Positions 1,404 to 50,541 of a DNA stretch of 60,592 nt are shown piece by piece; the stretch's first letter is position 1; every line of letters begins with the position of its first letter. The notes beneath the pieces are model-generated. The model worked only from the letters and a program-made list of their open reading frames with translations, ran no database searches and had not been told where the DNA came from. The stretch is from Nemertoderma westbladi. Its lineage: Eukaryota; Animalia; Xenacoelomorpha. The position numbers and the translations under genes were made by a program. Location of the stretch: positions 1-60,592 of the forward strand of contig JAUCBJ010004648.1 in assembly GCA_032718475.1 (NCBI GenBank), given 5' to 3'.

Positions 1404-2571
1404 TGTACGCGCTTTTGAAGACCTTTAGCAGTTTAACCTGCCAAAATTTATATGTCTTTTGGTTTATAAATAGACTTTAGAAGTTGACAAATATTTAATA
1501 CCAATAAACACAACATTAGCAGAAGCCAGCCTAGTGCGCGTCCATTCACCCGCTGGATATACCCGGGGGGCTGGATTCTGAGGGCTTAGATTATTATTGC
1601 AGTGTAAGCTTACTGTATTATTCGATTGATTGTTAATAAATAATTTCTGACTAATATTATTCACTTTCGGGAAATATTAACAGTTCCTTTAGGACGTGGC
1701 GCTCTATCTAGGTAAACAGAGATATGACTTATACTAATCACAACGGTAAGTCGGTAAGGCTTATGATTCACGTATGAGGCGCATTCTTTAGGAAATGCTT
1801 AGTTATCAGTCACAATCAGGCACACTACCGGTAACACACAATACTGCTCACTAATTTGCAGACCGTCAATGAATTTTATCATATATAAAGAGAACAGCAA
1901 CGGACCCATGTAGTGCTTATCAAATAGCATTAAATTCACTACAAACCACAATAATATAAGTCGCAATCGCTATATATAACCCGTCTCTCTAACCTGTAGT
2001 GTATCAAGAAAATTGGGAAATTTGGGTTCTTTATATATGTTCTCCAAATAATATTCAACCAAAACACAACAGTAAACAGCAGTATAATAATGTATGTTGA
2101 ACCGATAATGTAAGACTGAATTGAGATAAGATAAGATAACAGTTATACGCTCTATAATTTAAGCCTACTAATGTTTCTTCTAAAGTATGAAACGAATTAA
2201 CTTTAGAGCCGGTGTTCCTGGCCTAGATAGAAACAACACAAAGTATCAAAGAAAAAACAGTAAGACTGAACGCTCTAGCATGATCTGCCAAAAGCTCCAC
2301 ATCGACAGAAAAAATCGCTCTAATTGGCTGTTAAGCAAACAAAGAACCATGTGTCCAATGGCCGTTTCCATGTCAGCAACCAGCTGTTAGATGTCGTAAT
2401 CTGAATCATCAAGGCTAAGCTGTGCAAGGGTATTTGGTGCATTGCGGGTTTTTTGCCTTACCATGTCCTCCAAAGCACGTATCTAGAAGAATGACTTTTA
2501 TGTCCGTTAAAACACCTATAACGGTACCTTGCGGGCGAGGGGGACTGAGTATATCCGCAAAAGCTTTTACA
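1404..2571 (-). repeat. 3' LTR of element A (1168 bp)
   Basis: Direct repeat of 18578-19698. By eye it differs by about five substitutions plus a 47-bp segment (2143-2189) that the 5' LTR lacks. Confidence 0.97.
2136..2146 (-). promoter_or_regulatory. Candidate self-primer / transcript 5' end in the LTR (sense ATAACTGTTAT)
   Basis: Exact reverse complement of the 11 nt immediately after the 5' LTR (18567-18577). Confidence 0.6.
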
Positions 2572-2582: not shown

Positions 2583-2649
2583 AAAAGGGATTCAAGTTTA
2601 TAAATATACAAAAATCACAGTTTCTAATATATGTAAATACTCTAAACAG

Positions 2650-5600
2650 TTAGTCTTTCTTGCGCGGACGGCGTTTACGCAGTTTTTTAAAGCTAGCCAG
2701 AGTCCTTTTCTCTTTGGGGCGAGCCACTTTACAGGGAGGGCTATAACTCCTGGGTGAAGGGTGCAATATGATTGCATCAGAGGGTGTAGGATTATGGTCG
2801 GTGTATCCGCCAGTCGAAGTACCGGGTTGATTGACATCAACGTCGGGGGAGAGGGGTCTAACAGCTTTGAGAGCTCGTTTTAAGACAGCCGCTCTTACGG
2901 GTCCTTTACGAGTGGTCTGAACGAGGGCCGTGGGTGGACCATAGGCAGTTAGAAACCTCCGGGGTTTAATGGTTCTTTCCAACTCGCGTTCGCGGGCTCG
3001 GTATTCGTAAGGCCGTCGATATACTTCCTGTAACTCGGGGTGTGAGTTAACAAACAAGTCTCCATAGTCCGGATCCTGACGGATATAATTGATTAAGTTA
3101 TAGGAATGAAGGTCGCTAGGATTAACACTCCTGAGAAATTTGCGTACGAATTTGGTTGAAATACATTCTCCGACGCGCTTCAGTAGCTCGTAACTCGATA
3201 TGCGTGATTTCTGTTCGACCGAAGCGAATAGATAAGGATGGAACGCATAAACTCCTTCGTAAGCGCGTCCGGGATAATAGCGATGGCGCGAATCACAATG
3301 TAAATCAGCGTTCGCTTCCCAAGCTCTGATGTTACGTAGTGTGATCATTTCATCTACGCTTTCCAAATCGTGATTAAAAGGGCAATCGAAACTGGCATGT
3401 CCCTTTAGCTGACAATGGTGACATTGAGTCATAAATTGAGGGCAAACCGCAAAGATATGCAAGTTATTGAGTCTGCAATATGCGCAATAAATTTCCATAG
3501 TCGGTTGTTCTTGGAAATAGGAACAGCGGACGTTTGTGTCCATGGGCGTATCATGGTCTCTCGATGCACATAACCGACAACGTTGCCTAGAAACATAGTT
3601 GGCATGTTGATAATCGTAAGCAGTGAGACATTGTGGACCTTGATACCATTCTATGATGTAATCGTTGTCGCTGTTCCGGGGCGCGATAGGCTGAATCTCC
3701 TCAGATTCTAGACATATTGGTTCGTCTTCCAAGTGCATAGCCGAGGTGGGCGTGTCTGTCTCTTCAGGCGGACCTATTGTCTGAATTTCCACGACAGAAT
3801 AACCTGTGGGGATTCGAGGTCTTTGTATAACAGAGGAGTGCAAGTTCGATATACAAATCTCTTGGAAAATGGCGAATCCAGCGCTATCCAACTTCTCTGC
3901 AGCTGAGTTTCTTAGGCTGAGTTTGGTCAAAGCGCGGTCTTTAAATTGGCTATCCACGTTGCGGAACGGGGTTAAAAATCGTCGGAAACATTCGAAGCGG
4001 ATGAATTTATTATGTTCATCTAGCTTAGCGAGTTTGGTCCCAAGTATTAATGGATGGGCGCGTATAGTACGACTGCACACATCGGCTAGCCAACCGGCAA
4101 GTGTGGTGTTTTCAAAGATCGTGTATATAGCTAAGGAGGGACGGAGTGGAACACTCATGAAGCTATACACGGCGCCAGGTGCGGTCAATGGTCCATCAAA
4201 GTATAATCGAGAATAATGGTCTCCGTATACTTGTTGATAGTTAATGGGATTTCCGACTTTGAAATTCCATCCGTATTCCTGAAAGGCAAGATGTCCGATG
4301 GAAGTTCGTTGCACCTTTGTAATGTTGCTAGACATGTTAGCATACATGGTGCGGAAGAAACCTCGACCTTCTGCCCAGGGAGCAATCAGCTGAGTATCAA
4401 CGAAAGGGTATGGAATGTTCTCCATATTCCGAAAGTCGTTTTGGAGATCTCCATAAACAGCTGAGCCGATTTTAAGGATTCTTTCGTTGAACAACATCTC
4501 GAGTACGGGCTGGGGTAACATCGATCCATCGATGCCCATGGCCGGTTTGCGTTCGGTGTCAATGACGTAACGCTGCGCGAGTTCGAATTGTCCATGTCGG
4601 AGATTCTTTTGTGTTTCGGTGAGAGTTTCAAAAGAATAATCAATCACGTCGGAACACGCTCGAGTAAACACGTGGGTAGAACCAGCTAATCCGCGTATGT
4701 GGATCATGCGCGTAGTTCCTAGTTCTCCGACCGGAACGCTACCTTCATTATCGTAGGTGACAACTCCATACATCTCAATAACATTAAGAGTTTCATTCCA
4801 CTCCTTGGTGGCGTTCTCTAGGGTCATCCCTACTGGATGCCACAAGGTGGCGCATTGGTTAGCGTCAGGGAGATCGCTATACTTCATGTGCCGAGTGATA
4901 TACGTCTCCACATTTCCATATCTTTGTATTTTCTCTTCATCAAATAATACATCTAGATTCCAATGGACTAATCGAGTTTTAATAAATCCATCGAGATTAT
5001 AAGGGGGTTCTATATCTTTCTCGATTCTAGAAATGTTATATGGTTTTCTAAATGAGTTTACTTTTACTAACTGATCCAGATGTTTCTGCAATTGTTCGAG
5101 TTCGACAATGTCTAGAGGATTTATTAGTGGTAGAAACTTTAAATTATGCGTCGGGTCTTCTGGTTTTACCATATAATATTGAGTCAGATTAACGTAATAA
5201 GGGTGGTCTTTAATCCCATAAAACGAGTTCTGTAAAGGTCTACCGCGTATGTTGACATCGTGTACCATACGACGGACAAGATCCGCTCGATTGTCCGGAG
5301 GTTCAACGAGTATACCGTCAACACGAGCGGCCTCTATCGGCGGACGCTGTAACATAGGGGCGTCAGCGATAAGATTTTGCGATCCTGTACTGATATCAAC
5401 CGGTTGAGGTTGTATCGTCGTGAAGAGTTTGTCTCCGAAATGTGGAATCATCGAGGGATGACGAATGGTTTGAGAGTAGAGGTCTGTCATAAGGATTTGA
5501 GCTTCAGGTTGGGCTAAAGCGGCTTCTTCTCTCTCTTCCAGTTTCGTGTGTTTCTCCTCGAGTAGATTTTCTTCCGCTTGTCTCTGTAAGCGTTCATCCA

Positions 5601-6903
5601 AAAATTCTTGTAGAGAATACGTGCGTCCAAGCTCGATGTCTTCCTCGAGGTTTTGGATTTCTCTATCGAACTGTGGCAAGGCTAGCTCCTTCACCGATTG
5701 GACTTGTTGTTGTAATTTACGTTTCTCTAAACAATCTTGTGTTCCCTTTCCGATCTTCTGTCGAATAGCATCTAAAGCGTTTCTTATAACGCTCTCCTCG
5801 ACTTCCGTGGCGGGTTGCATCAGGTTTAATCCTGGACGATTGTAAGGATCAAAGGGCGATATGAGTTGCCCGCGTCCCAATCCGGCCAAGTAGGATGGGC
5901 GAATGTCTAACGAACCCACTACCGGAGCGCCACCGATTAATTGTTCGGGTAACACTAAGTCTTTGAACAGAGAATATAGTTCGGGAGGATCAGTGATACT
6001 GTTAGGATCAAGAGTTTGAGGTCTCACTAGGGAATGAGGAGGCCTGACCGAGTATTCCGGAACTCTGATCATGGGTTTATTCAGTGATCGTTTAAGACTA
6101 GCGATCGTAGGTGGTACGTCGAACAGGTTTCGCTCGAAACTCCCGTAAGTGTAACGCGTAAAGCTGAGTTTAGCGCAACGTCTCCGCGGATGTTTATGTC
6201 TTTCAGTTTGTTGGTTGGGTCTAGGGCATTCGTCACAATAATACCAAAGACGTACGTCCTGCAGAGGAAACGCGGGTGATCGTTCTCCAGTTTTGCAATA
6301 TTCTTCCATTTGTTCAAAACTATCCGGGATAACAGGTAGTGGACGATCGGCGGTAAGATACATCATCGTGAAATAGAGCCGTTTGAGTTCTACCACAGGG
6401 TCCTGATGTATACCTTGAGGATATCGAGTCTCTAGGTTCTGCTGACTGTCGATGTTGAGATAGGTTTCTCTCAAAAATTCTAGGTATTCGTTGAAGTCGA
6501 TGCGTTTATCCGGTTCTTCAACGTTTTCTCTTTCCAGTCTACTACGAATAGAATTTTCGTGATCTATTCTCGGTTTATCGTTACGACTCCGCTGGGTATG
6601 ATATTTAAATAGAACCATTTCCCTCTCTGTATCTATATCGTCCGTATCATGCAAATCGATAGGATGGCCGGTAGTTAAGAAGTCCATATACGTACCATTA
6701 CGATTCGTATAGCGAGTGGTGAATTTTCGATAGTCCAATTCACGCGCAAGTTGCTCTTGGGACATCGGCGGTTCGATATAACGACCATCGTCCTCCGTAA
6801 TGGTTGGATCGGCTTCACCGCGTATTAAGCTATCCACAAATGCTTGTAAAGGTAGGGCATATCGCTCCCTAATACCAAGATCATCTTCTATCAACTCCGT
6901 CAT
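2650..6903 (-). CDS. Extra ORF3 of element A, 1417 aa: N-terminal Cys/His domain, coiled coil, DEDDy (WRN/RNase D-like) 3'-5' exonuclease, three CCHC-type zinc knuckles, basic C-terminal tail
   Basis: Intact ORF. ExoI VVTYDNEG (D718/E720); ExoII LPQPVLEMLFNERILKIGSAVYGD (D819); FVDTQ; SIGHLAFQEYG; ExoIII-like PLRPSLAIYTIFE (Y927/E931). Knuckles CRLC..H, CAYC..HIFAVC and CHHCQLKGHASFDC. Tail KKLRKRRPRKKD. Confidence 0.85.
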   Translation of the reverse strand: MTELIEDDLGIRERYALPLQAFVDSLIRGEADPTITEDDGRYIEPPMSQEQLARELDYRKFTTRYTNRNGTYMDFLTTGHPIDLHDTDDIDTEREMVLFKYHTQRSRNDKPRIDHENSIRSRLERENVEEPDKRIDFNEYLEFLRETYLNIDSQQNLETRYPQGIHQDPVVELKRLYFTMMYLTADRPLPVIPDSFEQMEEYCKTGERSPAFPLQDVRLWYYCDECPRPNQQTERHKHPRRRCAKLSFTRYTYGSFERNLFDVPPTIASLKRSLNKPMIRVPEYSVRPPHSLVRPQTLDPNSITDPPELYSLFKDLVLPEQLIGGAPVVGSLDIRPSYLAGLGRGQLISPFDPYNRPGLNLMQPATEVEESVIRNALDAIRQKIGKGTQDCLEKRKLQQQVQSVKELALPQFDREIQNLEEDIELGRTYSLQEFLDERLQRQAEENLLEEKHTKLEEREEAALAQPEAQILMTDLYSQTIRHPSMIPHFGDKLFTTIQPQPVDISTGSQNLIADAPMLQRPPIEAARVDGILVEPPDNRADLVRRMVHDVNIRGRPLQNSFYGIKDHPYYVNLTQYYMVKPEDPTHNLKFLPLINPLDIVELEQLQKHLDQLVKVNSFRKPYNISRIEKDIEPPYNLDGFIKTRLVHWNLDVLFDEEKIQRYGNVETYITRHMKYSDLPDANQCATLWHPVGMTLENATKEWNETLNVIEMYGVVTYDNEGSVPVGELGTTRMIHIRGLAGSTHVFTRACSDVIDYSFETLTETQKNLRHGQFELAQRYVIDTERKPAMGIDGSMLPQPVLEMLFNERILKIGSAVYGDLQNDFRNMENIPYPFVDTQLIAPWAEGRGFFRTMYANMSSNITKVQRTSIGHLAFQEYGWNFKVGNPINYQQVYGDHYSRLYFDGPLTAPGAVYSFMSVPLRPSLAIYTIFENTTLAGWLADVCSRTIRAHPLILGTKLAKLDEHNKFIRFECFRRFLTPFRNVDSQFKDRALTKLSLRNSAAEKLDSAGFAIFQEICISNLHSSVIQRPRIPTGYSVVEIQTIGPPEETDTPTSAMHLEDEPICLESEEIQPIAPRNSDNDYIIEWYQGPQCLTAYDYQHANYVSRQRCRLCASRDHDTPMDTNVRCSYFQEQPTMEIYCAYCRLNNLHIFAVCPQFMTQCHHCQLKGHASFDCPFNHDLESVDEMITLRNIRAWEANADLHCDSRHRYYPGRAYEGVYAFHPYLFASVEQKSRISSYELLKRVGECISTKFVRKFLRSVNPSDLHSYNLINYIRQDPDYGDLFVNSHPELQEVYRRPYEYRARERELERTIKPRRFLTAYGPPTALVQTTRKGPVRAAVLKRALKAVRPLSPDVDVNQPGTSTGGYTDHNPTPSDAIILHPSPRSYSPPCKVARPKEKRTLASFKKLRKRRPRKKD

Positions 6904-6944
6904 ATCTGCTATCTGAGTTTATTAATATCAAATATGTTTATATT

Positions 6945-8521: not shown

Positions 8522-11500
8522 TCACGTTGGGGAGTCCCTAGATGTTTGAGGAATTAGGGAGGTGGTCGTGGGAAGAGTGTCTTGCCTTCCATAGTTTCCA
8601 GAGAGTTCTCTGTCTCTTTCCAGTAAACATAAACGACCAACTGGGCGATTGAGTTGTTGCGTCTCAAAGATTATGCCTGGCTTCTTGAAGTTACGCCGCA
8701 TGACGACAAGTTCTACTGAGCGCACTAAACCATCATCCGAGATGTGAGTCTCGATGATACGACCTGTCTGCCACCGTTTACGTGGGAGGTCTTGATCTAC
8801 AATAAGCACCATATCTCCGGCGCTGACGTTTTCTTGCTGCGCAAACCACTTAGTTCGAAGTTGTAGCGTGGGCAGATAATGTTTCTCGAAATGGTCAGCG
8901 AAACGACGGGATAGCAACTGCATAAGTTGCCAAGTTCGACGGCAGTATTCGTCTCCGTCGGCAATCTCCGATCGTGGGAGCATGGCTACAGGTTTCTTCA
9001 GTAGGAAGTGCGCGGGTGTTAGCGCTTCCAGGGAATCGGGACTCGATGAGACTGGCATAAGCGGTCTCTCGTTGAGATAGGCAGCTATTTCCTCCATTAA
9101 CGTCCGCAAAAGTTCGTCGGTGAGATACGCGCGGCATGGCACTATAAAGTGAAATGCGGTTTTGACACTTCGAATTAATCTCTCCCAACTTCCTCCCCAC
9201 CAAGGGGCGTCGGCGGCGTTGAAGGTCCAGCTAGACGCTGTTATCCTTAGCTGGTCGTCCACCTGTCTTTGGTTCCAGTCCTTCACGTAAGCCTGTATTT
9301 CGTTGTTGGCACCAATGAAGTTCGTTCCCTTATCCGATCTCATGGTATTACTCGTCCCGAAGCGAGCGATCTGTCGTCGTAAACTTAATACGAAGCTGTT
9401 GGTAGATAGATCGTTCACCATATCGAGATGGATGGCTCTGCAAGTCATGCATACGAAGATGACACACCATCTCTTGACTATAGTCCTAGCACGATATACT
9501 TCAATAGGGCCAAATAAATCTACACCAGTATTAGTAAAAGGTGGTTCATAGAAGCTTACTCGTTCCCTAGGTAATTCTGCCTCTCGCTGTGTTAAAGGCC
9601 TACTGAATGCTTTCCTACAGGGTATGCAGTTCCTAAGAACTTGGTTCAGAGCTCTACGGGGTTTATCAAAATAATAGCGAGTTTGAATTTCGCTAAGAAC
9701 TCGTTCTCTACCAGCATGATAAAGTTTACTGTGAACATCTACAATCATCTTGATTTGTACTTCAAGATTTCTAATGAGTATGGGGAATTTAGTGTCAAAG
9801 GATAATGGCGCATTGGTGAGCCTTCCTCCAACACGTATTAACCCATCTATCATTGTGCTAGAGAATCGATCCCTTAAGCGCATCTGCGGATTTCTCAACA
9901 ACAGAAAATACTTATCAGAATCCTCATAGCATTGCAGGAGTCTCAGTATCTGCTTATTGGTTTCTTCATGCTCCTGGTAACTAATTTTCTCCTTTAGAAA
10001 CCGGTCGGATGTTTTATATTTGGGTAAATTTTTAATAACATGAACTTGCGCAGATGTCAATGGAGCGGTATCACTAGTGGTCTTAGTCCTGGAGTAGTGA
10101 TGATGAAGACATAGTCTTAAATATGTGACGGCTTTACAGAGCCTATTCCAGGAACTGTAGTGATGCATTGCTCTCTGCAGCAGGGGTGAGATTCCTTGCG
10201 AGACGTCTGGTATTCCAGATTTCCAATCTCTATCTCGAATTTCCGCAACAGACTTATTTGTGGCGAGGGATTGTGGATCCGAAGCATCGTTTCCGGAAGC
10301 ATGTAATACAGATAGATCGATAGTCGGTTTAAATAACTTCGATTTACTCGCCCGGGTTTTAGGTTTGACTGTCTCCGCTCCCTTGGCTTGTCTAATCTGC
10401 GCCGTAGTAAGGTGAGGAGGCCATTCATCCTCTTCCTTGCTCAGGAAGTCGGGTCCACCCAACCAATCTGGAGTATCTATCAGTTCCTGTGGAGTTGCTC
10501 CCCTGGAGGCGATATCGGCTGGATTAATCGTACCAGGGCAATGTCTCCATTGATCTATCTTTGTGCGACTAAGAATAATAGCTAACCTGTTAGTAACAAA
10601 AACGCTGAACTGACAGACTTCATTGGTTAGATACTCCAACACGAGTAAAGCGTCGGTCCAATAAACCGTTTTCTCCAGTGGATAGTCGATTTGTTCCGTT
10701 ACGTTCCGGCCGATGGCTGTAGCGTATAAAGCCGCCTTTAACTCCGCTCGAGGAACCTTTAACTTGTTGTTAATCAATGAGGTAACCAAGGCGACTTTGA
10801 TTCCATCCGGGGTTTCGACTCGCAGATATTCTACTATACCTATTCCCATGTCGCTGGCGTCTCCAAACACATGGAGTTGATAGGAATACGTAGGAAGAAC
10901 ATGGCCAAAATATGCACGGGAAATTATAAAGTTCTCGATGGCAGGTAGAGAATCTTCCCATTTCATCCATTTCTTTAACAATTCTCCCTTAAGCGGATCG
11001 TCCCATGAGTGGTTTTCAAGCCACATTTGTTGTACTAAACTCCGAGCAATCAATATAACTGGGCTTATAAATCCCAATAGGTCGAAATAAGTGCTCAGGA
11101 TACTTAAACAAATCCTTTTGGTCCGAACTGGATTATCTCGCTGTTTTAACTGAAAAAACAGGATGTCTCTTTCAGTGTCCCACTTCAAGCCAAGCGTCTT
11201 GGTTTCAGGAAGATCGTCCTTTATTAAGTCTAGGTCTTTCGCTCCTCGGTCTTCTACCGGTATCGCTTCCAGAAACTCACGGGAGTTGCTGGTGAATTTC
11301 GTCAGTCGAAATCCACCTCTTTTCAAACACTCTACCGTTCCTTTCGCGACATCTATGGCTTCTTCTACTGATGGAAGGGACCTTAAATTGTCGTCCATGT
11401 ATATATTCCGTTTGATGTTGTCTATCACCTCTTTTGAGAAGGCGTCTCGGTTGTCATTCGCAGTGGTTCGCACCACGGAGCAGGCGTTGGAAGGGCTTGA

Positions 11501-14500
11501 TATGATCCCAAAAGCCTGGATGGTCATCCAGTACTCTACCGGTTTCTGGTTGAGGTCTCCTTCAGGCCACCACAGAAATCTCAGACTGTCTCTATCTCTA
11601 TCCAGCGCCTTGACTTGTAAGAACATTCCTTCTATATCGGAGGCGAACGCGATGGAATATTGTCTTAATCTCAAAAGTATTCCCAACAAAGATTGGAGTA
11701 AGTTGGGTCCTGGTAACAACTCGGAATTGAGGGATTGGCCCATATATAGGGCGGAGCCATCGAATACGACTCGTACTTCGTGGGGTTTACCGGGTTTGGG
11801 AACGTAATGATGTGTTAAGTAATACGTTCTCTCAGTCACTGGTGTTCCCTCCGGTACTCGCTCCGCGTATCCCTTTTTTATAAATTTCTTCAATTGAGTT
11901 TGGTACATTTCTTTAGCTGAAGCATTAGCCGTAAGGCGTCGATGTAATTGAGCGATTCTTTTCTCTGCCAAGGGTCTGTTATTTATAAATCTAGGTTCTC
12001 GTTTTCGAAATGGTAGGCCGATTTCATATCTACCTTGGTCCTTTAAAAAACGTGTAGTTGTTTCCTGGATTTGCTTGGCTCTTTCTTCTTCTATCGATAG
12101 AGCCTTATCGTATGAATTGGGCTCTACCAGTTCTTGAGTAAAGAATCGTACGGCTAGTTCGTCCCGAGTTCTAGCGTTGTAGCGCTCTATCTCATCGTTT
12201 AGTTCGTCATTGTAAGCAATGGGTTCCGATGGGCGTATCAGTTGACATAGGTTCACCTGATTTTTCCAAGTTTTGTTTTCTGTAAGTAGGTCGATTGTGT
12301 TCTCTTCATCGAAGAGTTGGTAGATGTCGTCATTATCTGAGGAGTATGGTGTTCCCTCAGTTAGTTCGTCCACCTCACTGCTCTCCTCTTCCCAATCGTT
12401 TACTTGGTATATTCGTTCTTGTGGCATTCTCTCTTCGAGAGTCCTGCGGGAAGGGCCAGTAAAGTACCAACCTACTCTAGTTCTTACTGCATAGGTTTGC
12501 AGTGGCTGCGGTTGAGCAGGCCGTTTCTCCAATGTTTCGAGCGCCTCATGCGCGTTTTGGCCGATGAGTATTTGCACTCCAGGATAATCTGTCTGGAATC
12601 GAGGTATCTTAAGATGTTGGATACTCTCATCCTCGTCCCAATTATAAAGGTCTGCCTGAGTAGTAGCGAAGTTCTTTATAGCCACCATTTTTACCGACCT
12701 TATACCTTGTACTCCTAATTTATCCTGGGGGGTGGACAACACACCTACATAGTAATCTGCCGTTAGGGTAGATTTCCAAACCTGCATAATTCCTGACATA
12801 TTCAATTTAGTCCGGACTTTGGGTTGTCCAGCAAAGATATCTTCGGCTAATTCTTGATCGATGAATGTTCCTGTGCTGCCGGAGTCAAGGAGTGCGTTCA
12901 CTATGTAACTGTGGTTAGGACCGTGAACTCTTACCTGCACTACAGGAAATTCTCTGATTCCTACGTTGGAAGTTGGAGCTTTCCAAGATGGTTGTTTGGC
13001 AAAAGTAGTTGTGGGAAACTCATTGTTGGTGTCCTTTTTATAAGTACACTTTACGTCGGAGTAACAGGTTCGCCGTTGGTGTCCTGGTCTGAGGCAATTA
13101 TAGCATAACCGCTTATCCCATACGACTGCACGTCTGTCTACAAGGGATTTCTTTAGAAATTCAGCACACGCACTCAAACGGTGGGTACCGTCGCACAGCG
13201 CACAGTTAGGTTTTATGTTACTCACTTTACCTTGGTTAACCTGATGCACTCTCGTTCTTTGTTCGGGCTTTCTTACGTGCATTCTGTTAGGGGACTGAGG
13301 AGGGGTCTTGGCAACCTGTTCTCTCCTATCGTTGGTTCGAGCTTTATATTTACTTACGTCTTTTGAGGTTTTGCCAACATAGTAAGATCGATCAGTGTCT
13401 TTCCCGCTGTCCTCTTCTTGAGAAGCTTGGCTTTCGCCGTCGTCAGTGTAACACACCGGTGTTACTCTTCTCCTAGAAGCGGGTTTCTCACTTACCTTAT
13501 TTTCCGATGTTTTCTCTCTGGACTGCTTGATGAGTTGTAGTTTTACTTCACCATCTAAGAAGGACATGAGATCAGCCATGGTAGGGCTTCGTCGTTGTTG
13601 TTCATTCATGTACAACACTTTCTTGTCCCAGCGTGTACATACTCCACCCTTTGGTAAAGTAGAGACTACGGCTCCAATAACCATGGAACTCTGATATTCA
13701 TGAGACTTACCTAACCAGTCCAATTGTCTACAGATCTCCTGAATCTCATCGGAAAACTCTATAATCCCGCTACTAAGGAAGTTTCGGGGGGCTACTAATT
13801 TTGCATACAAATACTTAGCTATGTTATCCTTGTTACCATACCTGATGTTTAATGTATCCCAAACTTGTCTTAATCCTTCTGGATGTCCAATAAACTTTAA
13901 CGCCATTAACTTGGGAGGTCCTTCCAAGCACTTGATGAGGAATCTAAGTTTCTCTCCGTTAGATAGTACAGAGTTCTGTATGCTATCTTTGTAATATTCA
14001 TTGAAAGGTAACCATTTCATCTCATCTCCATTGAATTTAACGATCTCTCCCACTTTGACCGCTTGGCGGGCTTCTGTTCTAGCCATCTGACGCGTAAAGC
14101 TTTCTTGGGCCATCGTGTTATTTAATATCGAATTATCGGTATATAAATTTCTCGGATCATTATCAGGTCTATAGGGAATATCATTAACAACAGATTTATA
14201 ATCACCCTTAATAGGGTTTGCTATAGGAGTTTCTACTTCACTAGCAGTATAGATGCGTGTAGGCTCCACACCTTGCGCATGTAATACTTCAGACCTAACA
14301 GGTTGACACAATGTTACTGGGGGTATTGGTATGCCCTTTTGTATGTTGACTAATTTGTCGCGTTCTAGTGCGATACTTTGCTGCACTTCTTGCAATTCTG
14401 CCCTACCTTCCCTTACTGTTCCCTTAAGTTGGTGGACAGTCTCCTGCATCTGTCCGAGCAGGAGATTCATCCCCCGCCGTCCCTCCTCTACCCACTCGAC

Positions 14501-16351
14501 CGCCGAAGCGGGAGTCGCCAACATTGTAGCGGGCTGACGCGGGACGACGGGAGACAAATCTTTGATTTCTCTCTCAGCTTCCAGGACAGGGATATTCTCA
14601 TGGACTGTTCTACCGGGTACAGGCAGTGTAGTACTGTGCAAAGGGAACTTAGAGTTAAGCTCTGGAAGTACAGGGGTCTCTAGCACAGGAGTGACTTTGG
14701 TAACGACAGGCCTAATTATTTCAGGCTCATCAACTATAGTAGGGAGTTTTTTGACCTTAATAATTTGGTCTGTAGGTTCTATTCTACCTAAGTCTGTGCT
14801 AGCTAGTTGCCTTCTCACAGCTGGGGGCAAATCAGGCAATTTGTGATGGTAAGATGTTTTTCTACGCCTGCTTAGACGAGATCTATTTCCTCCGCCTTCA
14901 GGATCGGTGGTTTCGCTTTCCTCCGATGACGTATATCCCTGGCGTTTGGGAGTAGATCTTCTCATCATCTGCATGTGACTAGCAGTTAACTGTTTATTTA
15001 TGTTGTCTTGCGTCTCTTGCAGATTTTCCAACTCCAGTTGGGTAGTCTCCTCAGAGGCTCTCCGTTCTGCTTCTGCCACTGCCTTAGCTGCTTTTCTTTC
15101 TGCTTCTGCTTCTGCCGCCGCTGCCTTTCTTTCTGCTTCCACTTCGGCCATTGCCGCTGTTACTGCAGCTGCCTTTCGGTCCTCTATCCGTTTTTTCTTT
15201 ACTTGTTCTTCTTGGACTCTAGTGAGGCGGAGTTTTTCATCAAATTCAGCTTGGTTAGCAGCTAACATTTCAGCATCGATTGAGTCTAACACACGCTGGG
15301 TTCCTTCACTATTAGGGGAAAGTCCAGACAGCCGTCTCCTCAACTCTTCGTCTCCTAGGAATCGCTGATAGTCGGACAGATAAATGTCGATGGCGTCTCT
15401 CGTTCGTGGTCTCTCTGCGGTCTCTTCGCCTTCCACTTGAGAAAGGGTGGCATCGGTTGGTTCTTCATAGGTTAGTCTCTCAGACAGCTGGGATTTCCAC
15501 TGGTCCGTTTCTTATACTTTGAGACCTACCCGCTGGAACCAAGTTTTGACAGCAACCTGCAGCGACGTGTCCTGTCTTCTTTTGGAAGTTTCCTCAAAGG
15601 CTGATAGGATTAGTCTAATGCGTAGGGTTCTTTCACGTACTTGATAAAGCAGCTCTTCCTGCTCTTGAGGTCCTTGGGGTTGTCGAAACAATTGTTCTTC
15701 CAATCGCTCTAAGGAGCCGAAGAATCCCTGCACATATCCTGCTGCCGACCTCTTCCAAACAGCTGGATACATCGTATCTTTAGCCACTCCCATCCTGTGT
15801 ATATCTTCCCAAGTAGCTTCGGACAAATCTAACGGGAGTCCGGGTCCGGGAAAGTTCCATTGTGACTCGACAATAGACATCAATTCTTCCCTGGCGTATC
15901 CCGCATAATTATCTTGGGTCGCTCTCATACTTCTCGCCCAATCGGCTTGATGTTCTTCCACCACAATCAATATAGTAGTTAGTACTGCGGCAGGAAGGGT
16001 GAGAAGGGGGTCCGAGTAGGCTGTAGCCGCCATCTGCAATCCGCGTTCGGGGGTCAGCTCTACAGTATCCGAACTACTGGAGCTATCTGATCGCTGGGAA
16101 CAAGTTTCTTGGCTAGGATGTTGCTGCTGTTGGACAGCTGCTTCCTGGTTCCGTTTGACTTGGGCCCGAGTGCCGATGATAGACCTACGGTGTTGGATTA
16201 GCTTAGGGTCTGATACTACTACTGGAGGGATGACCTTTCTTTCAGTAGGAGGTGAGCTGAACTCCTTTCTTAATCGCTCCACACTCCTATCTGTGTCACA
16301 GATGGTTGTATCGATTAGACTGTCTGACAGGTTTTGCTGGGTGTCAGACAT
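8522..16351 (-). CDS. BEL/Pao gag-pol polyprotein of element A (single frame, one in-frame TAA at 15512-15514)
   Basis: ORFs 16351-15512 and 15436-8522 are in the same frame; element B has CAA at the stop position. Motifs: gag KFNGD..W..F, Cys/His knuckles, protease LLDSGS, RT YMDD, RNase H VFGDASD, integrase H..H/CIPC, DLFGP, SDKG, WERLIRSVK. Confidence 0.93.
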
Positions 16352-18566: not shown

Positions 18567-18577
18567 ATAACTGTTAT
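18567..18577 (-). promoter_or_regulatory. Non-tRNA primer-binding site of element A (sense ATAACAGTTAT)
   Basis: Directly follows the 5' LTR, lacks the TGG expected for tRNA CCA pairing, and is complementary to LTR motif 2136-2146. Confidence 0.65.
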
Positions 18578-19698
18578 TGTACGCGCTTTTGAAGACCTTT
18601 AGCAGTTTAACCTGCCAAAATTTATATGTCTTTTGGTTTATAAATAGAGTTTAGAAGTTGACAAATATTTAATACCAATAAACACAACATTAGCAGAAGC
18701 CAGCCTAGTGCGCGTCCATTCACCCGCTGGATATACCCGGGGGGCTGGATTCTGAGGGCTTAGATTATTATTGCAGTGTAAGCTTACTGTATTATTCGAT
18801 TGATCGTTAATAAATAATTTCTGACTAATATTATTCACTTTCGGGAAATATTAACAGTTCCTTTAGGACGTGGCGCTCTATCTAGGTAAACAGAGATATG
18901 ACTTATACTAATCACAACGGTAAGTCGGTAAGGCTTATGATTCACGTATGAGGCGCATTCTTTAGGAAATGCTTAGTTATCAGTCACAATCAGGCACACT
19001 ACCGGTAACACACAATACTGCTCACTAATTTGCAGACCGTCAATGAATTTTATCATATATAAAGAGAACAGCAATGGACCCATGTAGTGCTTATCAAATA
19101 GCATTAAATTCACTACAAACCACAATAATATAAGTCGCAATCGCTATATATAACCCGTCTCTCTAACCTGTAGTGTATCAAGAAAATTGGGAAATTTGGG
19201 TTCTTTATATATGTTCTCCAAATAATATTCAACCAAAACACAACAGTAAACAGCAGTATAATAATGTATGTTGAACCGATAATGTAAGACTGAATTGAGA
19301 TAAGATAAGATAACAGAAACGAATTAACTCTAGAGCCGGTGTTCCTGGCCTAGATAGAAACAACACAAAGTATCAAAGAAAAAACAGTAAGACTGAACGC
19401 TCTAGCATGATCTGCCAAAAGCTCCACATCGACAGAAAAAATCGCTCTGATTGGCTGTTAAGCAAACAAAGAACCATGTGTCCAATGGCCGTTTCCATGT
19501 CAGCAACCAGCTGTTAGATGTCGTAATCTGAATCATCAAGGCTAAGCTGTGCAAGGGTATTTGGTGCATTGCGGGTTTTTTGCCTTACCATGTCCTCCAA
19601 AGCACGTATCTAGAAGAATGACTTTTATGTCCGTTAAAACACCTATAACGGTACCTTGCGGGCGAGGGGGACTGAGTATATCCGCAAAAGCTTTTACA
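18578..19698 (-). repeat. 5' LTR of element A (1121 bp)
   Basis: Direct repeat of 1404-2571, TG...CA, followed by TSD GTGTT. Confidence 0.97.
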
Positions 19699-35361: not shown

Positions 35362-35859
35362 TGTAAAAGCTTTTGCGGATATAACTGGCCCTTTTTCTCC
35401 GCAATGTACTGTGTAAGGTGTTTTAGAGGACATAACAAGCGATTTTATCAGCTATGTCTGCATGTGTGCTCTAACGGACATAAAAAGCCAGTTTTCCCAC
35501 AATTCGCTCAAATACTCTAAACTACCTAACTCAAATGACGCAATCTACAAGCTGATTTGCTGTGCGCACATAGCCTCTTTGTTCTGTTCTACCAACCAAT
35601 CAGAGCGATTTCGCCTTGTGTTGGAGAAGGCCTGCAAAAACCCGAATAGTTCGGCATTTAGACATTTGCGGAATCTGTAGAATCTGGAGCTCAGCCAATG
35701 AGAGCTTTTTCTCTTTACATTGAGAGATGCCTACAGAAACCCACGCAATTCAGTCAGTGTGTATCTTTCTAAGCCAGAACACCGGCTTAGGATTCTTCTG
35801 TACTTCTGTAGAAGTTTCAGACTTTGGCCAGAACATTAGATGCCTTTGATTATCGAAAC

Positions 35860-35871
35860 ATAAACTATTAC
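35860..35871 (+). promoter_or_regulatory. Candidate self-primer in the LTR of B (ATAAACTATTAC)
   Basis: Exact reverse complement of 36900-36911; same LTR context as the motif in A; repeated at 47634-47645. Confidence 0.65.
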
Positions 35872-36228
35872 CAACGGTCAATGGTCAACGGTGCACAATC
35901 CACGGTACGGTACCGTACAAAAACAATTACTGCATTATTTCACTGTCTGTTATTAATGGTTAAATCTGTTGATGGATATATTGTTATATTTAGAGAATAT
36001 CGATAAAGAACCCAAAAAACCCCAATCTTATTGATTATTTAAGGTTAGAGGACAGGTTACCGGTAGCAATTGCGACTTACATTATAGTGGTTCTGGAGTG
36101 AATTAAATGCTATTTCATAATCCCTACAGTGTGTCATGTTGCTATCCTCCTTATATATGATAAAATTCAGTAACTGTCGGCAGATCAGTGTGAAGCAGTG
36201 TGAAGTTGTGTGCGGTGATGAGACTGGT

Positions 36229-36507
36229 CTCTCTCGGGGCAAATACCACACCCTGGTTTGCCATTCCACAGGGTGGGTGTCGCAATGGAGTCAGATATGA
36301 GGCCCATCACCCATATCTACTCTGGCGCATATGACCCACCTTAATCCAGGACCAAGGGCGTCCTTATCCCAGAACGAAGGGGGTCCTAGTTACAGGACCA
36401 GATTTGCCCTAGTAAAAGGGGTCATGCAGCTACAGGTGGCACCTCCTTTATGCTGCATGGAGGTGGCAAGTTTTCTTGATCAATGACCTAGAATACCTGA
36501 CCTGACC
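36229..36507 (+). mobile_element. 279-bp SINE-like retroposon with (CCTGA)n tail
   Basis: 13-bp TSD TGATGAGACTGGT (36216-36228, 36508-36520); absent from the 3' LTR; reverse-complement match to 21056-21485. Confidence 0.85.
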
Positions 36508-36899
36508 TGATGAGACTGGTAATAAAGCATCTCCTAAAGAATGCGCCTTTTATGTAAATCAATAGACATCCCGTTGTGTTTAGTGTAAGTCATAACTCTG
36601 TTTATATACTTAAAGCGCCACGTCCTAAAGGAACTGTTAATATTTCCCTGAAAGTGAATATATTGTCAGAGATTATATAGCAACTATCAATTGAATGATA
36701 CAGTAGGTCTACAACGCAATAATAAGTCAAAGCATCCGAATCCAGTCTCCCTTAACAGTGGGTGAATGGTCGCGCATAGACTGGCTTCGGCTAATGTTAT
36801 TTCAGTAATATTAAATTGTCGTAGGCTAAAGTCGATTTATAAATTAGAAGACACCTAAAATTAGCGGGTTAAACTGCTAAAAGTCTAAAAGCGCGAACA

Positions 36900-36911
36900 G
36901 TAATAGTTTAT
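36900..36911 (+). promoter_or_regulatory. Non-tRNA PBS of element B (GTAATAGTTTAT)
   Basis: Immediately after the 5' LTR; complementary to 35860-35871. Confidence 0.7.
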
Positions 36912-38869
36912 ACTCGTTTATTGCAGTGTAGACAATAAATACATTTGTCTATTGTTCTGGTAAGAACAATAACAGTTATAGCTTTCTTTATTGCAGTAGG
37001 CAATAAAGTTGAAAAGTACCGGTCGACCGGTAACCAGTAGGCCTAACTACCTAACCACCCGGACCGGTACTTACAGCAGTACAGGTACATCAGTATTATT
37101 CGATTTGATAATTATATACCGGTAGGTCTTGATATTAATCGGGGACGCCTGGTTTTTATTGGGATTTTACTTATTTCTGTCAGTTTTATTTATCTGTAAG
37201 TTAATATTGAGCAGAAGACGTGTAAGCCTGCTCAGATTGTACAGATAATTTGTAGGCTGGATTGTCGTCTGGCTGTTGTTAGGTCTGAAGAGATTGCGGT
37301 GTGTGTAGAGTGTCTGTCCGGTAAAGTACTAGTTAGGAACGTGGGGGCAGCCAGTGCTGTAAGGTAAATCCCCCCCGAAAGAATAAGTCGTACTACTCGG
37401 TTAGAACGCATACTAACTAACCATTTCGGAATCTGCACATACTGTAGTTTATTTAGGCTTGATAGTAGTCTGCCAGCGTTTGGTTTGTATTTTGTTTGAG
37501 TAGTCTGTATGGGTAGCGTAATATTTATTATTCAGAGTTTATGCGATTATTCGCAACATTCATACCTCCAAGTTTATTCCTACAGTAATTGTGCTTGTTA
37601 TACATACCGTTATAGTTAAATTAACCCCGGTACTACATCAGGGCTGCTCGGCGTAGGTAAACACCGGCGATTTTATGCGCTAGTCACTCCAGCAGATGCT
37701 GTGGTTCTTTTAGCTGTTCAAGTATATTTAACTGCTGGTTATTTGTTATACAAGTACTTGTACCTAATCTAGGGTTTAGTGTACAATACTTTCCGAAAGT
37801 AATTAGTTTGTGGGCAGTATATTTGTGTTGTAAAGTGGTTAATAGGCACGTTAGCTCTGGTAGGCTGCGGTAATTAACTTCTAGGTAGGGACACTCCGGG
37901 TACATAACGTAGTACTTATAGTGCTGTATAGCAAAAAGGCTATAAGTCGTCAGACGGTGGTATTTTCTTATCTGGACAACACAGTGTATTTACTACTGCT
38001 TAATTATTTTCAAATACCGTAGTATCCTGTCCGTTTGTAATAACCAGAAATTCTAACTCCCTGTTAGACTGGTTTGTAGATTCCCTGTAAAATTACCCTA
38101 AGAAAAATTTGTACGTGTAATTTGTTATTGTTTATTTAGAGATTGTAATCTCACTCAATAATTGTAGGTAATTAGTAGATAAGTAACTTAGTAAAGTAGA
38201 ATTATTCGTTTTAGTGTCCAACAGGTGGCACTCCACTGAGAGCGTTAGCTTCTGTGTAGTGACCCCTTACCAGAAACAATAACATTTGTTTCAAATATTG
38301 GCAAATCCCATTGTACGGGTATACATATTATAAATCAACTCAAACCGATTTATAAATAGTAGGCCTGTCATCCATCAATTAGGTCTTAATATCAGTTGGA
38401 CTACTGCTTAAATAACGGTAATAAAGTAACGTAAAGTAACCAAGTAACCCTAAAATTCAGAAATTCAATTATTCTAAAATAATTGATATACCGGTATTTA
38501 CGATAGGCTTATTATATTTATTTCTATAAAGTTATGCTGAAATCATATACCGGTATTCTGTAATTAATTTAGTCTATAATTATACTTATATATACTATAA
38601 GTGTAAACTGTATACTGGTATTCACGGTAGGCTTATTATATATTTATATATTTACGCTGAATTATATACCGGTATTTTTGTGACAAACCCTAGTCTGTAA
38701 TAATACTTATACTATAAGTGTATACCGGTATTTTAATATATTGTATATATATCACGTTACACTGAGTAACGATATCGGTAATTGATCCCTAGGCTTACAG
38801 TGTATACTGAATTACTAGACTTGCTTTAACTGTCGTTATATTAGTAAGCATTCAACTGTACAATCAAAC

Positions 38870-41800
38870 ATGTCTGACACAAAGCAAACACTGTCAGATA
38901 GTCTCTTAGAAAGTGCTAGAAGGAGTGTTAGACAGGGTCTTAAAAGATCTGGGACTCAGCTAAGAGTATAGAACGTCTGAGACCAAAGTCCAAGTCCCCT
39001 CCTACTGTAAGAAAGGTCATCCCTACAGTAGTAGTGTCAGACCCTAGGCTAGTAGAGCACCATAGGTCTATCATAGGCACTCGGGCTCAAGTCAAGCGGG
39101 ACCAAGAGGAAGCTGTTAAACAGCAGCAACACTCGAGCCGAGAACTTATTTCTCAGCGATCAGATAGCTCCAGTAGTTCGGATACTGTAGAGCTGACATC
39201 CGAGCACGGAGCAAGGATGGCAGATGCGGTTTATTCGGATCCCCTTCTCATTCTTCCTGCAGCCGTACTCACTAGGGTATTGATTGCGGTGGAGGAACAC
39301 CAAATTGATTGGGCGAGAGGTAGGCGATCGACCAAGGACAGTTATGCAGGATACACCAAGGAGGAACTGAAGTCTATTGTCGAGTCGCAATGGAACTTCC
39401 CCGGACCCGGACTCCCGTTTGACTTATCGGAAGCTGCCTGGAAGACATACACAGGATGGGAGTGACAAAAGACACTAGTGATCCAGCTGTGTGGAAGAGG
39501 TCGGCACCAGGATATGTACAGGGATTCTTCAGCTCTTTGGAGCGATTAGAGGAACAACTGTTTCAACAACCCCAAGGACCTCAAGAGCAGGGAGAGCTGC
39601 TTTATCAAGTTCGAGAAAGAACTCTAAGGATCAGACTAATCCTATCGGCCTTTGAGGAAGCTTCGAAAAGAAGACAGGACACGTCGTTGCAAGTTGCCGT
39701 CAAGACTTGGTTCCAGCGGGTGAGTCTCAGGGTTCAAGGAACGGCCCAGTGGAAATCTCAGCTGGCTGAGCGCTCAATCCATGGAGAATCAACAGACGCT
39801 ACCTTTTCTCAAGTGGAAAGTGAAGCGACAGCAGAGAAACCGCAGAAGAAGGACGCTATTGACCTCTATCTGTCAGACTATCAACGATTTATAGGAGACG
39901 AAGAGTTGAGGAGACGGCTGGCTGGACTTCGCCCTAATAGTGAAGGAGCCAAGTGTGTGTTAGACACATTAGATGCGGAAATGTTAGCTGCGAACCAAGC
40001 TAAATTTGATGAACGCCTCCGCATCGCTAGTCTCCAAGAAGAATTGGTAAAGAAAAAACGTATAGAAGACGGAAAGACAGCAGCAGCGGCAGCGGCAGAA
40101 GTTGAAAGAAAAGCGGCAGCGGCAGCGGCAGCGGCAGAGGTAGAAGCGGAAAGAAAAGCAGCAGCGGCAGCGGCAGAGGTAGAAGCGGAAAGAAAGCGAG
40201 CAGCGGTAGAAGCGGAAAGAAAAGCAGCAGAGGCAGTGGCAGAAGCAGAACGGAGAGCGTCTGAAGAGACCACCCAACTAGAGTTGGAAAATCTGCAAGA
40301 GACGCAAGATTACATAGACAAACAGTTAACAGCTAGTCAGATGCAGATGATAAGTAGATCTACTCCCAAGCGACAGAGCTATACATCATCGGACGAAGGC
40401 GATACAACAGATCCTGAAGGTGGAGCAAATAGATCTCGTCTCAGCAAGCATAGAAGAATGCCCCACCGTCAGAAATTGCCTAATCTGCCCCCAGCTGTGA
40501 GAAGGCAACTAGCTAGCACAGATTTGGGTAGTACAGAACTCACAGACCAAATTATTAAAATAGAAAGACTCCCTACTATAGTAGATGAGCCTGAAATAAT
40601 CAGGCCTGTTCTCGAAGCCACCCCTTCGGTGATAGAGACACCTGTACTCCCGGAACCTACCTCTAAATTCCCTTTGCACAGCACTAAACTACCTGTGCCC
40701 AACAGAACCGCCTCTGAGACAGTTCCTGTCCTGGACTCCAAGCGAAATATCAATGATTTGTCACCCGTTGTCCCTCGTCTACCCGCTACTATGTTGGCGG
40801 CTCCCGCTTCGGCGGTCGAGTGGGTGGATGAGGGACGGCGGGAAATGGGTCTCCTGCTCGGGCAACTGAGGGAACACCGTTTGTGTTCCTCTCAGCAGGT
40901 CCGGGAGATGGAAGGGACTGTTCAGCAGTTAAAGGGAACAGTCAGAGAGGGTAGGTTAGAGTTGCAAGAAGTGCAGCAGAATATCGCGTTAGAACGCGAT
41001 AAATTGGTAAATATACAAAAAGGTATACCACCACCCCCTGTAACAATGTGTCAACCTGTTAGGTCTGAAGTATGTCATGCGCAAGGTGTAGAGCATACAC
41101 GCATCTATACTGCTAGTGAAGTAGAAACTCCTATAGTAAACCCTATTAAGGGTAATTATAAACCTGTTGACAATGATATTCCATATAGACCTGATTATAA
41201 TCCGAGAAATTTATATACCGATAACTCGATATTAAATAATACGATGGCCCAAGAAAGTTTTACGCGTCAAATGGCTAGAACCGAAGCCCGTCAAGCGGTA
41301 AAGATGGGAGAGATAGTCAAGTTCAATGGAGATGAGATGAAATGGTTACCTTTTAATGAATAAAGATAACATACTGAACTCTGTACTAGCTAACGGAGAG
41401 AAACTTAGATTCCTCATCGAGTGCTTGGAAGGACCTCCCAAGTTAATGGCGTTGAAGTTTATTGGACATCCAGATGGATTAAGACAAGTTTGGGATACAC
41501 TAAACATCATGTATGGTAATAGGACTAACATAGCTAGGTATTTGTATGCGAAATTAATGGCACCCCGAAAGTTTCTTAGCAGCGGGATTATAGAGTTTTC
41601 CGATGAGATTCAGGAGATCTGTAGACAATTAGACTGGTTGGGTAAGTCTCATGAATACCAAAATTATATGGTTGTAGGAGCCTTAGCATCAGCTTTGCCA
41701 AAGGGTGAAGTAGGTACTCGCTGGGACAAAAAGGATTCTATTTGATGGACCAACAACATAGAGATCCAACCATGATGGACCTTCTGTCATTCTTAAACCG

Positions 41801-45347: not shown

Positions 45348-45504
45348 GCCCTTGGGACGGACAGTGGAGTGACTCGCGCTGAGTATTGTTGTCGTTGTGT
45401 AGCTACTACGTTGGCGATAGACACGGCGGCGACAGTATATCAGCGCTGAGGATCTTGCGCTGTCCGGGGGCAGTGAGGGGTAGGCAGCGACGCCCGCTAG
45501 CCTA
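45348..45504 (+). ncRNA. Element B copy of the structured RNA upstream of ORF3
   Basis: Stems GGACAGTG/CGCTGTCC, GCGCTGA/TCAGCGC, GTATTGTTGTCGTTGTGT/ACACGGCGGCGACAGTAT and TAGGC..GCCTA. Confidence 0.6.
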
Positions 45505-45544
45505 ATATAATGAATTATAATATTGATAAACTCATATAGCAACG

Positions 45545-47057: not shown

Positions 47058-47135
47058 CTGTTTAGAGTATTTTTATATTTTAGAAACTGTGATTTTTTAT
47101 ATTTTATAGAATTAAATCCCATTTTCTGTGAGCAG

Positions 47136-50100: not shown

Positions 50101-50536
50101 AACTGTCGGCAGATCAGTGTGAAGCAGTGTGAAGTTGTGTGCGGTGATGTGACTGGTAATAAAGCATCTCCTAAAGAATGCGCCTTTTATGTAAATCAAT
50201 AGACGTCCCATTGTGTTTAGTGTAAGTCATAACTCTGTTTATATACTTAAAGCGCCACGTCCTAAAGGAACTGTTAATATTTCCCTGAAAGTGAATATAT
50301 TGTCAGAGATTATATAGCAACTATCAATCGAATGATACAGTAGGTCTACAACGCAATAATAAGTCAAAGCATCCGAATCCAGTCTCCCTTAACAGTGGGT
50401 GAATGGTCACGCATAGACTGGCTTCGGCTAATGTTATTTCAGTAATATTAAATTGTCGTAGGCTAAAGTCGATTTATAAATTAGAAGACACCTAAAATTA
50501 GCGGGTTAAACTGCTAAAAGTCTAAAAGCGCGAACA
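47136..50536 (+). repeat. 3' LTR of element B (interrupted by a solo LTR)
   Basis: Matches 35362-36899 on both sides of the 47775-49924 insertion. Confidence 0.93.
47775..49924. mobile_element. Solo LTR (2150 bp) of another family, probably on the minus strand
   Basis: TG...CA termini; 5-bp TSD AATAT (47770-47774, 49925-49929); absent from the 5' LTR of B; non-coding. Confidence 0.85.
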
Positions 50537-50541
50537 AAGGT

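Follow-up and report, generated by a model that had tools for sequence, protein, structure and literature searches.

In a 60,592-nt stretch of the Nemertoderma westbladi genome (hereafter the window), a BEL/Pao retrotransposon carries a third gene, ORF3, placed downstream of pol and ahead of the 3' LTR. ORF3 encodes a protein that very probably carries a nuclease domain of the DEDD fold, followed by three CCHC-type zinc knuckles. Our preferred reading, held tentatively, is that ORF3 is an accessory RNA-binding 3'-5' exoribonuclease, most probably blunting host RNA silencing or surveillance. The features discussed are collected in Table 1.

Table 1. Coordinates of ORF3, its host element and related copies in the window
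Feature	Position	Strand	Remarks
ORF3	2650..6903	minus	1417 aa, ATG to stop, no internal stops
N-terminal conserved stretch	6220..6411	minus	aa 165-228, ends in C-x2-C
Predicted DEDDy-like nuclease domain	4069..4806	minus	~aa 700-945; RNase D HMM, Atlas, alignments, homolog P0002
Putative ExoI, D718/E720	4752-4744	minus	
Putative ExoII, D819	4449-4447	minus	
Putative ExoIII, Y927/E931	4125-4111	minus	
Three CCHC-type knuckles	3382..3579	minus	aa 1109-1174
Conserved motif E..A.....R....G after knuckles	3184..3381	minus	aa 1175-1240; no named family
Basic C-terminal tail, NLS-like	2653..2721	minus	putative localisation signal
gag-pol	8522..15268	minus	2248 aa: DUF1759, knuckle, protease, RT, RNase H, integrase, DUF5641
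gag 5' part	15512..16351	minus	in frame with gag-pol, closed by in-frame stop 15512-15514
5' LTR	18578..19698	minus	TG..CA
3' LTR	1404..2571	minus	
Target duplication of host element, 5 bp	1399-1403 and 19699-19703		
Primer binding site (PBS), host element	18567..18577	minus	11 nt, exact complement of LTR site
LTR site complementary to PBS	2136..2146	minus	putative self-primer
Copy B	35362..50537	plus	sister subfamily, 77-88% identical; 5-bp target duplication, internal deletion
PBS, copy B	36900..36911	plus	12 nt, other letters; exact complement of LTR site
Copy B LTR sites matching its PBS	35860-35871 and from 47634	plus	
Related ORF3 remnant	50938..51135	minus	behind integrase of more distant BEL element C

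The host element and ORF3

The host element is a BEL/Pao retrotransposon of 18.3 kb with near-identical LTRs, and it belongs to a young family of very high copy number. Its assignment to BEL in the original prediction was upheld by Pao-type domains arranged in the order gag, PR, RT, RNase H, IN, with Pfam matches to PF05380 (E 2e-30), PF03564, PF18701 and PF17921, and by the TG..CA LTRs and the target duplication. The 5' LTR lacks 47 bases found in the 3' LTR, a gap that truncates the putative self-primer site. The ORF3 of copy B lacks residues ~458-1365, nuclease and knuckles included.

The pol stop and the start of ORF3 are 1.6 kb apart, 79 bases separate the end of ORF3 from the 3' LTR, and the opposite strand is stop-rich throughout. 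Its intact frame and its position agreed with what had been predicted, as did the lack of an evident signal peptide or membrane segment in a hydropathy scan (19-residue maximum 1.2; acidic N-terminus). The lack of an evident membrane segment rules out an env role as fusion glycoprotein. The NLS-like tail described earlier was also found, with nine K/R among the final 17 residues, and a basic tail is likewise present in copy B. The conserved N-terminal stretch recurs in the window's more distant BEL element (38%, 68 aa, E 2e-8).

ORF3 evolves under purifying selection. Across the whole gene, 24 of the 40 listed variants were synonymous, compared with a transition-weighted expectation of 29% (p 6e-5), and in the nuclease domain this held for 33 of the 40 best-supported variants (29% expected; p 3e-12). 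Comparison with a second copy gave a dN/dS of 0.16, which is not near 1. Since synonymous variants exceed expectation, the reading frame is not due to chance, and the same excess rules out a captured host gene in neutral drift.

The predicted nuclease domain, the knuckles and their relatives

Residues D718, E720, D819, Y927 and E931, proposed as the motif residues of a DEDDy exonuclease, were confirmed at these positions in the translation. The NCBIfam RNase D HMM matched aa 798-864 (E 5.4e-4 and 2.7e-4), covering only model positions 60-124 of 363. An hhalign alignment (E 3.5e-5) paired D819 with the E. coli RNase D residue D85, and in a second set-up the score of ORF3 against RNase D exceeded those of 100 out of 100 column shuffles. 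This match supports the assignment of D819 as the ExoII aspartate. A four-way alignment placed D718/E720, D819 and Y927/E931 on D28/E30, D85 and Y151/D155 of RNase D. Taken singly, the ExoI and ExoIII alignments are not significant, equally good ones being obtained in 201 and 99 of 500 shuffles, respectively, and with the default aligner ExoI falls elsewhere owing to an insertion of ~30 aa. Atlas features gave a best match of 0.93, and all ten top family-bearing matches fell within the PF01612 family or clan; shared features numbered 162, below the 170 typical for family members.

The motif acids are conserved. None of the best-supported 40 variants, out of 90, hits the five motif codons, and a homolog, P0002 (E 3.9e-7 in a search among 1.84 billion; 27-30% identical), retains D-x-E, D and Y-x3-E plus the same knuckles. 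P0002 itself matched PF01612 at E 0.2 only. In both proteins ExoIII reads Y-x3-E in place of the canonical Y-x3-D, and because of this Glu the domain is called DEDDy-like here rather than canonical DEDDy. A literature search on natural DEDE variants found no relevant report. Neither the full-length protein nor the nuclease domain alone had a match in Pfam or PDB, and no HRDC domain was detected after the nuclease. The RNase H-like fold that had been anticipated was not obtained by structure prediction, mean pLDDT being 31 for a single-sequence model of aa 680-980 and 30 for a three-sequence model of P0002. The DEDDy-like assignment is sustained by the ExoII match, the collinear motifs and their conservation in P0002, whereas ExoIII has Glu and the structure models are of low confidence. 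Because the last acid is Glu and both models fell short, catalytic activity is less certain than the fold; on balance, an active domain is somewhat more likely than an inactive one.

The three CCHC-like knuckles expected downstream of the nuclease are present, with canonical spacing in the third only: C1109-x2-C-x4-H-x9-C, C1140-x2-C-x5-H-x4-C and C1161-x2-C-x4-H-x4-C. The first is backed by alignment with relatives. Top matches of the knuckle profile were Air2, retroviral NC and Lin28, and PDB entries 7c42 and 7c45 (Trypanosoma brucei RNase D, TbRND) were also matched.

Among relatives the nuclease varies. In P0003 it is degenerate, the second ExoI acid being lost and ExoII and ExoIII not clear, and none was detectable in the L003 and L004 third genes, where the knuckle module alone is kept; the L003 gene is sited behind another BEL pol. 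These sequence comparisons show the triple knuckle plus a helical motif to be the apparent conserved core of a third-gene family whose nuclease may look intact, be degenerate or be missing; the nuclease appears to be an accessory part rather than the core. Word-based searches, covering similar lengths, gave no match to ORF3 aa 640-1240, and P0002 itself was the sole match when P0002 or a three-sequence profile was used. No related loci were found in viral contigs, prokaryote genomes or a first metagenome scan; the best phage record reached E ~10, and PHROGs gave nothing below E 0.06.

Proposed role and alternatives

The protein might be made from its own RNA or from a spliced RNA, and the basic tail would import it to the nucleus. 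The three knuckles would hold single-stranded RNA and could pass it on to the catalytic site, as happens in trypanosome RNase D, and the RNase D-like domain would trim RNA 3' ends by a two-metal mechanism in which Glu is the final ligand. Targets may be small guide RNAs, their precursors or antisense transcripts, and such trimming would weaken host silencing or surveillance of the element. Given a DEDD fold and an active enzyme, we put the likelihood that ORF3 targets silencing RNAs at about two thirds, and counter-silencing is the most likely of the three roles proposed originally. Gain and loss of the nuclease among relatives would fit a role in host conflict better than an essential replication step. 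The 3' ends of piRNAs are mostly methylated and resistant to such enzymes, which counts against counter-silencing. To our knowledge, protein suppressors of RNA silencing from animal retrotransposons are little documented. A bolder proposal, which we regard as rather unlikely, is that the BEL lineage built a nuclease suppressor of silencing onto an old knuckle third gene: an active DEDE exoribonuclease, bearing a nuclear tail and knuckles like those of Air2, would destroy silencing RNAs, which could explain the very high copy number, together with tRNA-free self-priming.

A possible but doubtful alternative is that the nuclease is weak or dead and the protein acts by binding RNA 3' ends or silencing proteins, like EXD1 and Maelstrom. 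The replacement of Asp by Glu at ExoIII in both ORF3 and P0002, the degenerate motifs of P0003 and the survival of the knuckle module alone in L003 and L004 all agree with this, and inactive DEDD derivatives occur in piRNA biology (PMC5408684). However, all four acids, as well as the Tyr, are conserved at ~27-30% identity, where a dead site should have drifted as in P0003. Should ORF3 be no more than a helper that binds RNA, it would still mark out a BEL third-gene family that has no name yet.

It is improbable, in our judgement, that an active enzyme processes the element's own RNA (transcript 3' ends, lariats or RNA remaining after reverse transcription). The fold evidence is the same as for action on silencing RNAs, members of the RNase D family process the 3' ends of structured RNAs, and an equivalent role has been suggested for rotifer genes (PMC5408684); against this, the nuclease is patchy among relatives, and the separate ORF would have no evident way into the particle.

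Each copy has a PBS complementary to its own LTR. The pairing spans 11 of 11 bases in the host element and 12 of 12 in copy B, which was equalled in 5 and 1 of 2000 shuffles, respectively, and PBS and LTR site co-vary between the copies; no tRNA genes were found within the window. As far as sequence can tell, the self-priming signature is real, so this part of the idea that ORF3 trims the self-primer stood. The nuclease would reduce LTR-started RNA to the 11-12 bases shielded by PBS pairing, since the duplex would halt a single-strand 3' exonuclease, and the loop from site to PBS would be ~740 nt. The trimming itself is nevertheless very unlikely. An optional nuclease is an unlikely maker of the primer, and related third genes carry it in degenerate form or lack it, among them the one behind the L003 BEL pol (a contig without its 5' end, so that priming is not visible). 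Moreover, pol has RNase H motifs, and the Tf1 primer is made by the RNase H of RT, according to the title of a reference cited in PMC4600332.

Proofreading of reverse transcription or trimming of cDNA ends, also proposed earlier, found no support and has only a slight chance of being correct: the clan contains polymerase proofreading domains, the ExoII segment is similar to the one in Pol I and the element is long, but the top profile match is RNase D, the knuckles are of RNA type and the nuclease is unfused to pol and optional in relatives. That the motifs arose by chance in a protein of another fold, as the Pfam, PDB and structure-model results would allow, is very unlikely, given that three partly independent methods (Atlas, RNase D HMM and hhalign) agree on the clan and that the motifs keep a collinear order and are shared by P0002.

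Comparison with known systems

The self-priming elements Tf1/sushi, Tcn1 and TAR likewise have a PBS that can pair with 11-12 nt of their own LTRs, and the available texts describe this for Gypsy and Copia lineages, not for BEL/Pao (PMC6317226, PMC4600332).

Among cellular enzymes, ORF3 matches E. coli RNase D and Rrp6 in the ExoII region and in collinear motifs; it differs in that HRDC is undetected, ~30-aa insertions follow strand 3 and precede ExoIII, and ExoIII has Glu. The likeness to TbRND is at the level of architecture, a DEDD nuclease followed by CCHC knuckles and no HRDC, which in TbRND is a functional RNA-trimming arrangement (PMC7797062). TbRND is a cellular enzyme of the mitochondrion; its four knuckles lie ~30 aa from the nuclease, and its ExoIII has the canonical Asp, a direct ligand of metal A (PMC7797062), whereas ORF3 has three knuckles ~165 aa away, an extra 700 N-terminal residues and Glu at ExoIII.

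Dada DNA transposons also carry a DEDDy domain, which is canonical DEDD, sits inside the DDE transposase and is proposed to act on DNA ends (PMC3706591). The precedent named in the original prediction, DEDDy ORFs in bdelloid rotifer retroelements, is real: ORF3s of the LTR retrotransposons Juno1/2 and Vesta2/5 are also RNase D-like, occupy the env position, lack a membrane segment and have a non-standard acid set, and Athena/Terminon elements carry such DEDDy genes too (PMC5408684). The hosts there are Juno, Vesta and Penelope-like elements, and the main text never names BEL; the rotifer motif is DEED versus DEDE in the BEL ORF3, the available text describes no knuckles versus three here, and rotifer ORF3 evolution showed no clear departure from neutrality, in contrast to strong purifying selection here (PMC5408684). 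The likeness is by description, as none of our homolog searches returned the rotifer sequences.

In the papers compared here, similar cargo is described from other transposon groups only; Repbase reports may include such BEL elements. A DEDDy third gene is known from rotifer Gypsy-like elements; new here are the BEL host, the DEDE motif and the knuckles. Roles for retroelement DEDDy genes have been putative ever since they were reported from rotifers, and ORF3 provides an intact, strongly selected case in a different superfamily, whose relatives with intact-looking, degenerate or no nuclease form a natural comparative set for function and DEDE activity.

The third gene and its host element

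ORF3, the third gene of the BEL/Pao element copy A, is a real feature and a real selected gene. Its reading frame, originally described as an intact ORF of 1417 aa, contains no stop in 1417 codons. Among the 40 best-supported differences listed for the whole ORF (1141 more lie beyond those), 24 were synonymous. For the nuclease region (4090-4770), where 50 more lie beyond the 40 listed, 33 of these 40 were synonymous (p 3e-12 against the approximately 29% expected with transition weighting), with a pN/pS of about 0.06-0.09. None of the 40 created a stop or touched the codons of D718, E720, D819, Y927 or E931, and no indel over 4090-4770 reached the 30% threshold. Comparison of 311 N-terminal codons with the sister copy B, after removal of three at which B has a stop, gave a dN/dS of 0.16, inside the 0.12-0.25 range of four gag and pol blocks. 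This value is not near 1.

Copy A is an 18.3-kb minus-strand element flanked by a 5-bp target duplication. Across about 1,120 aligned bases its LTRs show 5 substitutions, besides a single 47-base gap, and this near-identity indicates a young insertion. A 2248-aa ORF matched the Pao RNase H (PF05380, E 2e-30), DUF1759, DUF5641 and an integrase zinc domain in Pfam, and the pol motifs are ordered RT, RNase H, integrase; copy A is therefore a BEL/Pao element. One in-frame stop at 15512 breaks gag, and the 47-base gap (about 19317, 5' versus 3' LTR) deletes the initial four bases of the putative self-primer along with the sequence that precedes them. Copy A thus looks disabled by gap and stop, though ORF3 is intact. 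The element has a long leader of 2.2 kb and, ahead of ORF3, a spacer of 1.6 kb, and tandem duplications occur within them; in copy B the spacer is conserved at 84%, together with the coding DNA that flanks it.

In copy B a deletion has removed the nuclease and knuckles of ORF3, and the basic tail is retained. Element C, an older BEL relative in the same window, bears a remnant of the ORF3 N-terminal part behind its integrase. Copy B sits inside the ORF3 region of C, and a further relative, D, lies in opposite orientation; C and D each carry a 12/24-base tandem repeat between the RNase H and integrase regions. Fragments of another repeat occur at 23517-24168 and 57076-57730 (with a sub-cut-off DUF6451 match at 56987-57616), and 25634-26389 holds a satellite of 163 bases. 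Contigs of public runs aligned to ORF3 in thousands (16,044 in X1 and 6,574 in X3, totals that do not equal copy number), indicating a family with many diverged copies.

Features of the elements and of the metagenome loci (L001, L003, L004; own coordinates)
Feature	Position	Strand	Remarks
5' LTR of copy A	19698-18578	-	TG..CA
3' LTR of copy A	2571-1404	-	TG..CA
Tandem duplications, leader/ORF3 spacer	17635-18213, 16458-16704, 18388-18515, 7704-8009
Copy B, sister copy	35362-50537	+	77-88% identical to copy A
Element C	34202-35361 and 50538-55037
Element D	27224-34200
12/24-base tandem repeat of C and D	about 53780-54150 and 33016-34200
L003 third gene	5423-8209		~900-aa protein, knuckle module
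L004 third gene	615-3326		~900-aa protein, knuckle module
P0003	L001 124-2022		degenerate nuclease domain, then two knuckle-module copies

Self-priming signature

In copy A the 11 bases following the 5' LTR (18567-18577) are perfectly complementary to LTR bases 2146-2136. In copy B the LTR is followed by 12 bases with other letters (36900-36911), which pair without mismatch with the aligned position of the B LTRs (35860-35871). Shuffles matched these complement lengths in 5/2000 (A, 11 nt) and 1/2000 (B, 12 nt) cases. Duplex energies between primer binding site (PBS) and LTR were -10.1 and -10.7 kcal/mol, crossed pairs being weaker (-6.6 and -2.0). The changes are compensatory, the PBS of each subfamily pairing exactly with the same LTR position. 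By sequence, both copies bear a signature like that of Tf1, with a PBS complementary to the element's own LTR; no description of self-priming for BEL/Pao was found in the literature searched. Tf1 reportedly uses RNase H in self-priming, and since the pol of copy A contains RNase H motifs, ORF3 would be dispensable for this step. Of the proposal that ORF3 trims the self-primer, the self-priming signature stood and the need for ORF3 did not. In copy B (36900-37000) the PBS-plus-hairpin unit is duplicated, and the second unit, 69 bases further on, bears the PBS letters of copy A; it may record a primer-site switch via duplication or recombination.

Nuclease domain and knuckle module

Pfam and PDB sequence searches with the nuclease domain returned no match, and two structure predictions yielded no confident fold. 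The NCBIfam RNase D model covered aa 798-864 (E 5.4e-4, or 2.7e-4 with a shorter query piece), scoring far below cut-off, and PF01612 clusters ranked top in Atlas (0.93; 162 shared features). Among 1.84 billion proteins, aa 560-1340 matched two: the nuclease region hit P0002 (E 3.9e-7) and the knuckle region P0003 (E 9.8e-4). A two-sequence profile placed D819 on D85 of E. coli RNase D with 72% probability (E 3.5e-5); a second set-up scored above 100/100 shuffles, yet with a probability of only 20%, and global-mode profile alignment to RNase D failed. In a four-way alignment D718/E720, D819 and Y927/E931 fell on D28/E30, D85 and Y151/D155, the catalytic residues of RNase D. Alignments of ExoI and ExoIII as isolated pieces were not significant, and the default aligner shifted ExoI. 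P0002 retains D-x-E, D and Y-x3-E; P0003 has D-x-K at ExoI and no clear later motifs. The domain likely belongs to the RNase D-type DEDD clan, with collinear motifs; it is DEDDy-like, with Glu (E931) as fourth acid of a putative active-site pocket.

A three-sequence profile scan of metagenomes retained 4 loci out of 141 pattern matches. In each of them knuckles precede an E..A.....R....G motif, L002 showing just the later part. L003 encodes a pol of BEL type, which matches PF05380 at E 2e-44, shares 27% identity with the pol in the window and is the only pol seen at these loci; behind it comes a 929-aa reading frame that contains the knuckle module and in which no nuclease was detected. Its relative L004 encodes a protein 25% identical across 778 aa; neither nuclease nor Pfam family was found in either. 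L001, a 3.7-kb contig without pol, encodes P0003. The top match of the knuckle-module profile was Air2 (E 8e-7); retroviral NC, Lin28 and the CCHC protein of 7c42/7c45 came next, and the small margin over NC makes Air2 a lead only. The knuckle module is the conserved core of the third gene. Because related loci share it, element C has a remnant and the nuclease varies, in BEL elements the third gene seems to be both old and modular.

Proposed role and known systems

ORF3 would act as an accessory exoribonuclease, its knuckles gripping single-stranded RNA and passing the 3' end to the DEDE site formed by D718/E720, D819 and Y927/E931. In Trypanosoma brucei RNase D, knuckles hold single-stranded RNA and deliver its 3' end to the active site, and catalytic roles are documented for the residues equivalent to those of RNase D (PMC7797062). 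The basic tail makes a nuclear site probable, and the targets, which we only infer, would most likely be host silencing RNAs. The main rival is a binding-only role. In the five long third-gene versions seen, the nuclease looks intact in two, is degenerate in one and undetected in two. Counter-silencing is favoured because a domain that is optional and variably inactivated sits more easily with conflict than with a core step.

No BEL/Pao element with a DEDDy third gene appeared in the literature searched (including PMC3985635, PMC6338049 and PMC7998251), a scope outside which Repbase reports and most subscription papers fall. The rotifer precedent named originally is borne out by PMC5408684 and PMC6431247: Juno and Vesta elements and Terminons likewise carry DEDDy third genes, whereas the host of ORF3 is BEL/Pao. 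In Dada, the DEDDy domain lies inside the transposase (PMC3706591); ORF3, by contrast, is a separate third gene.
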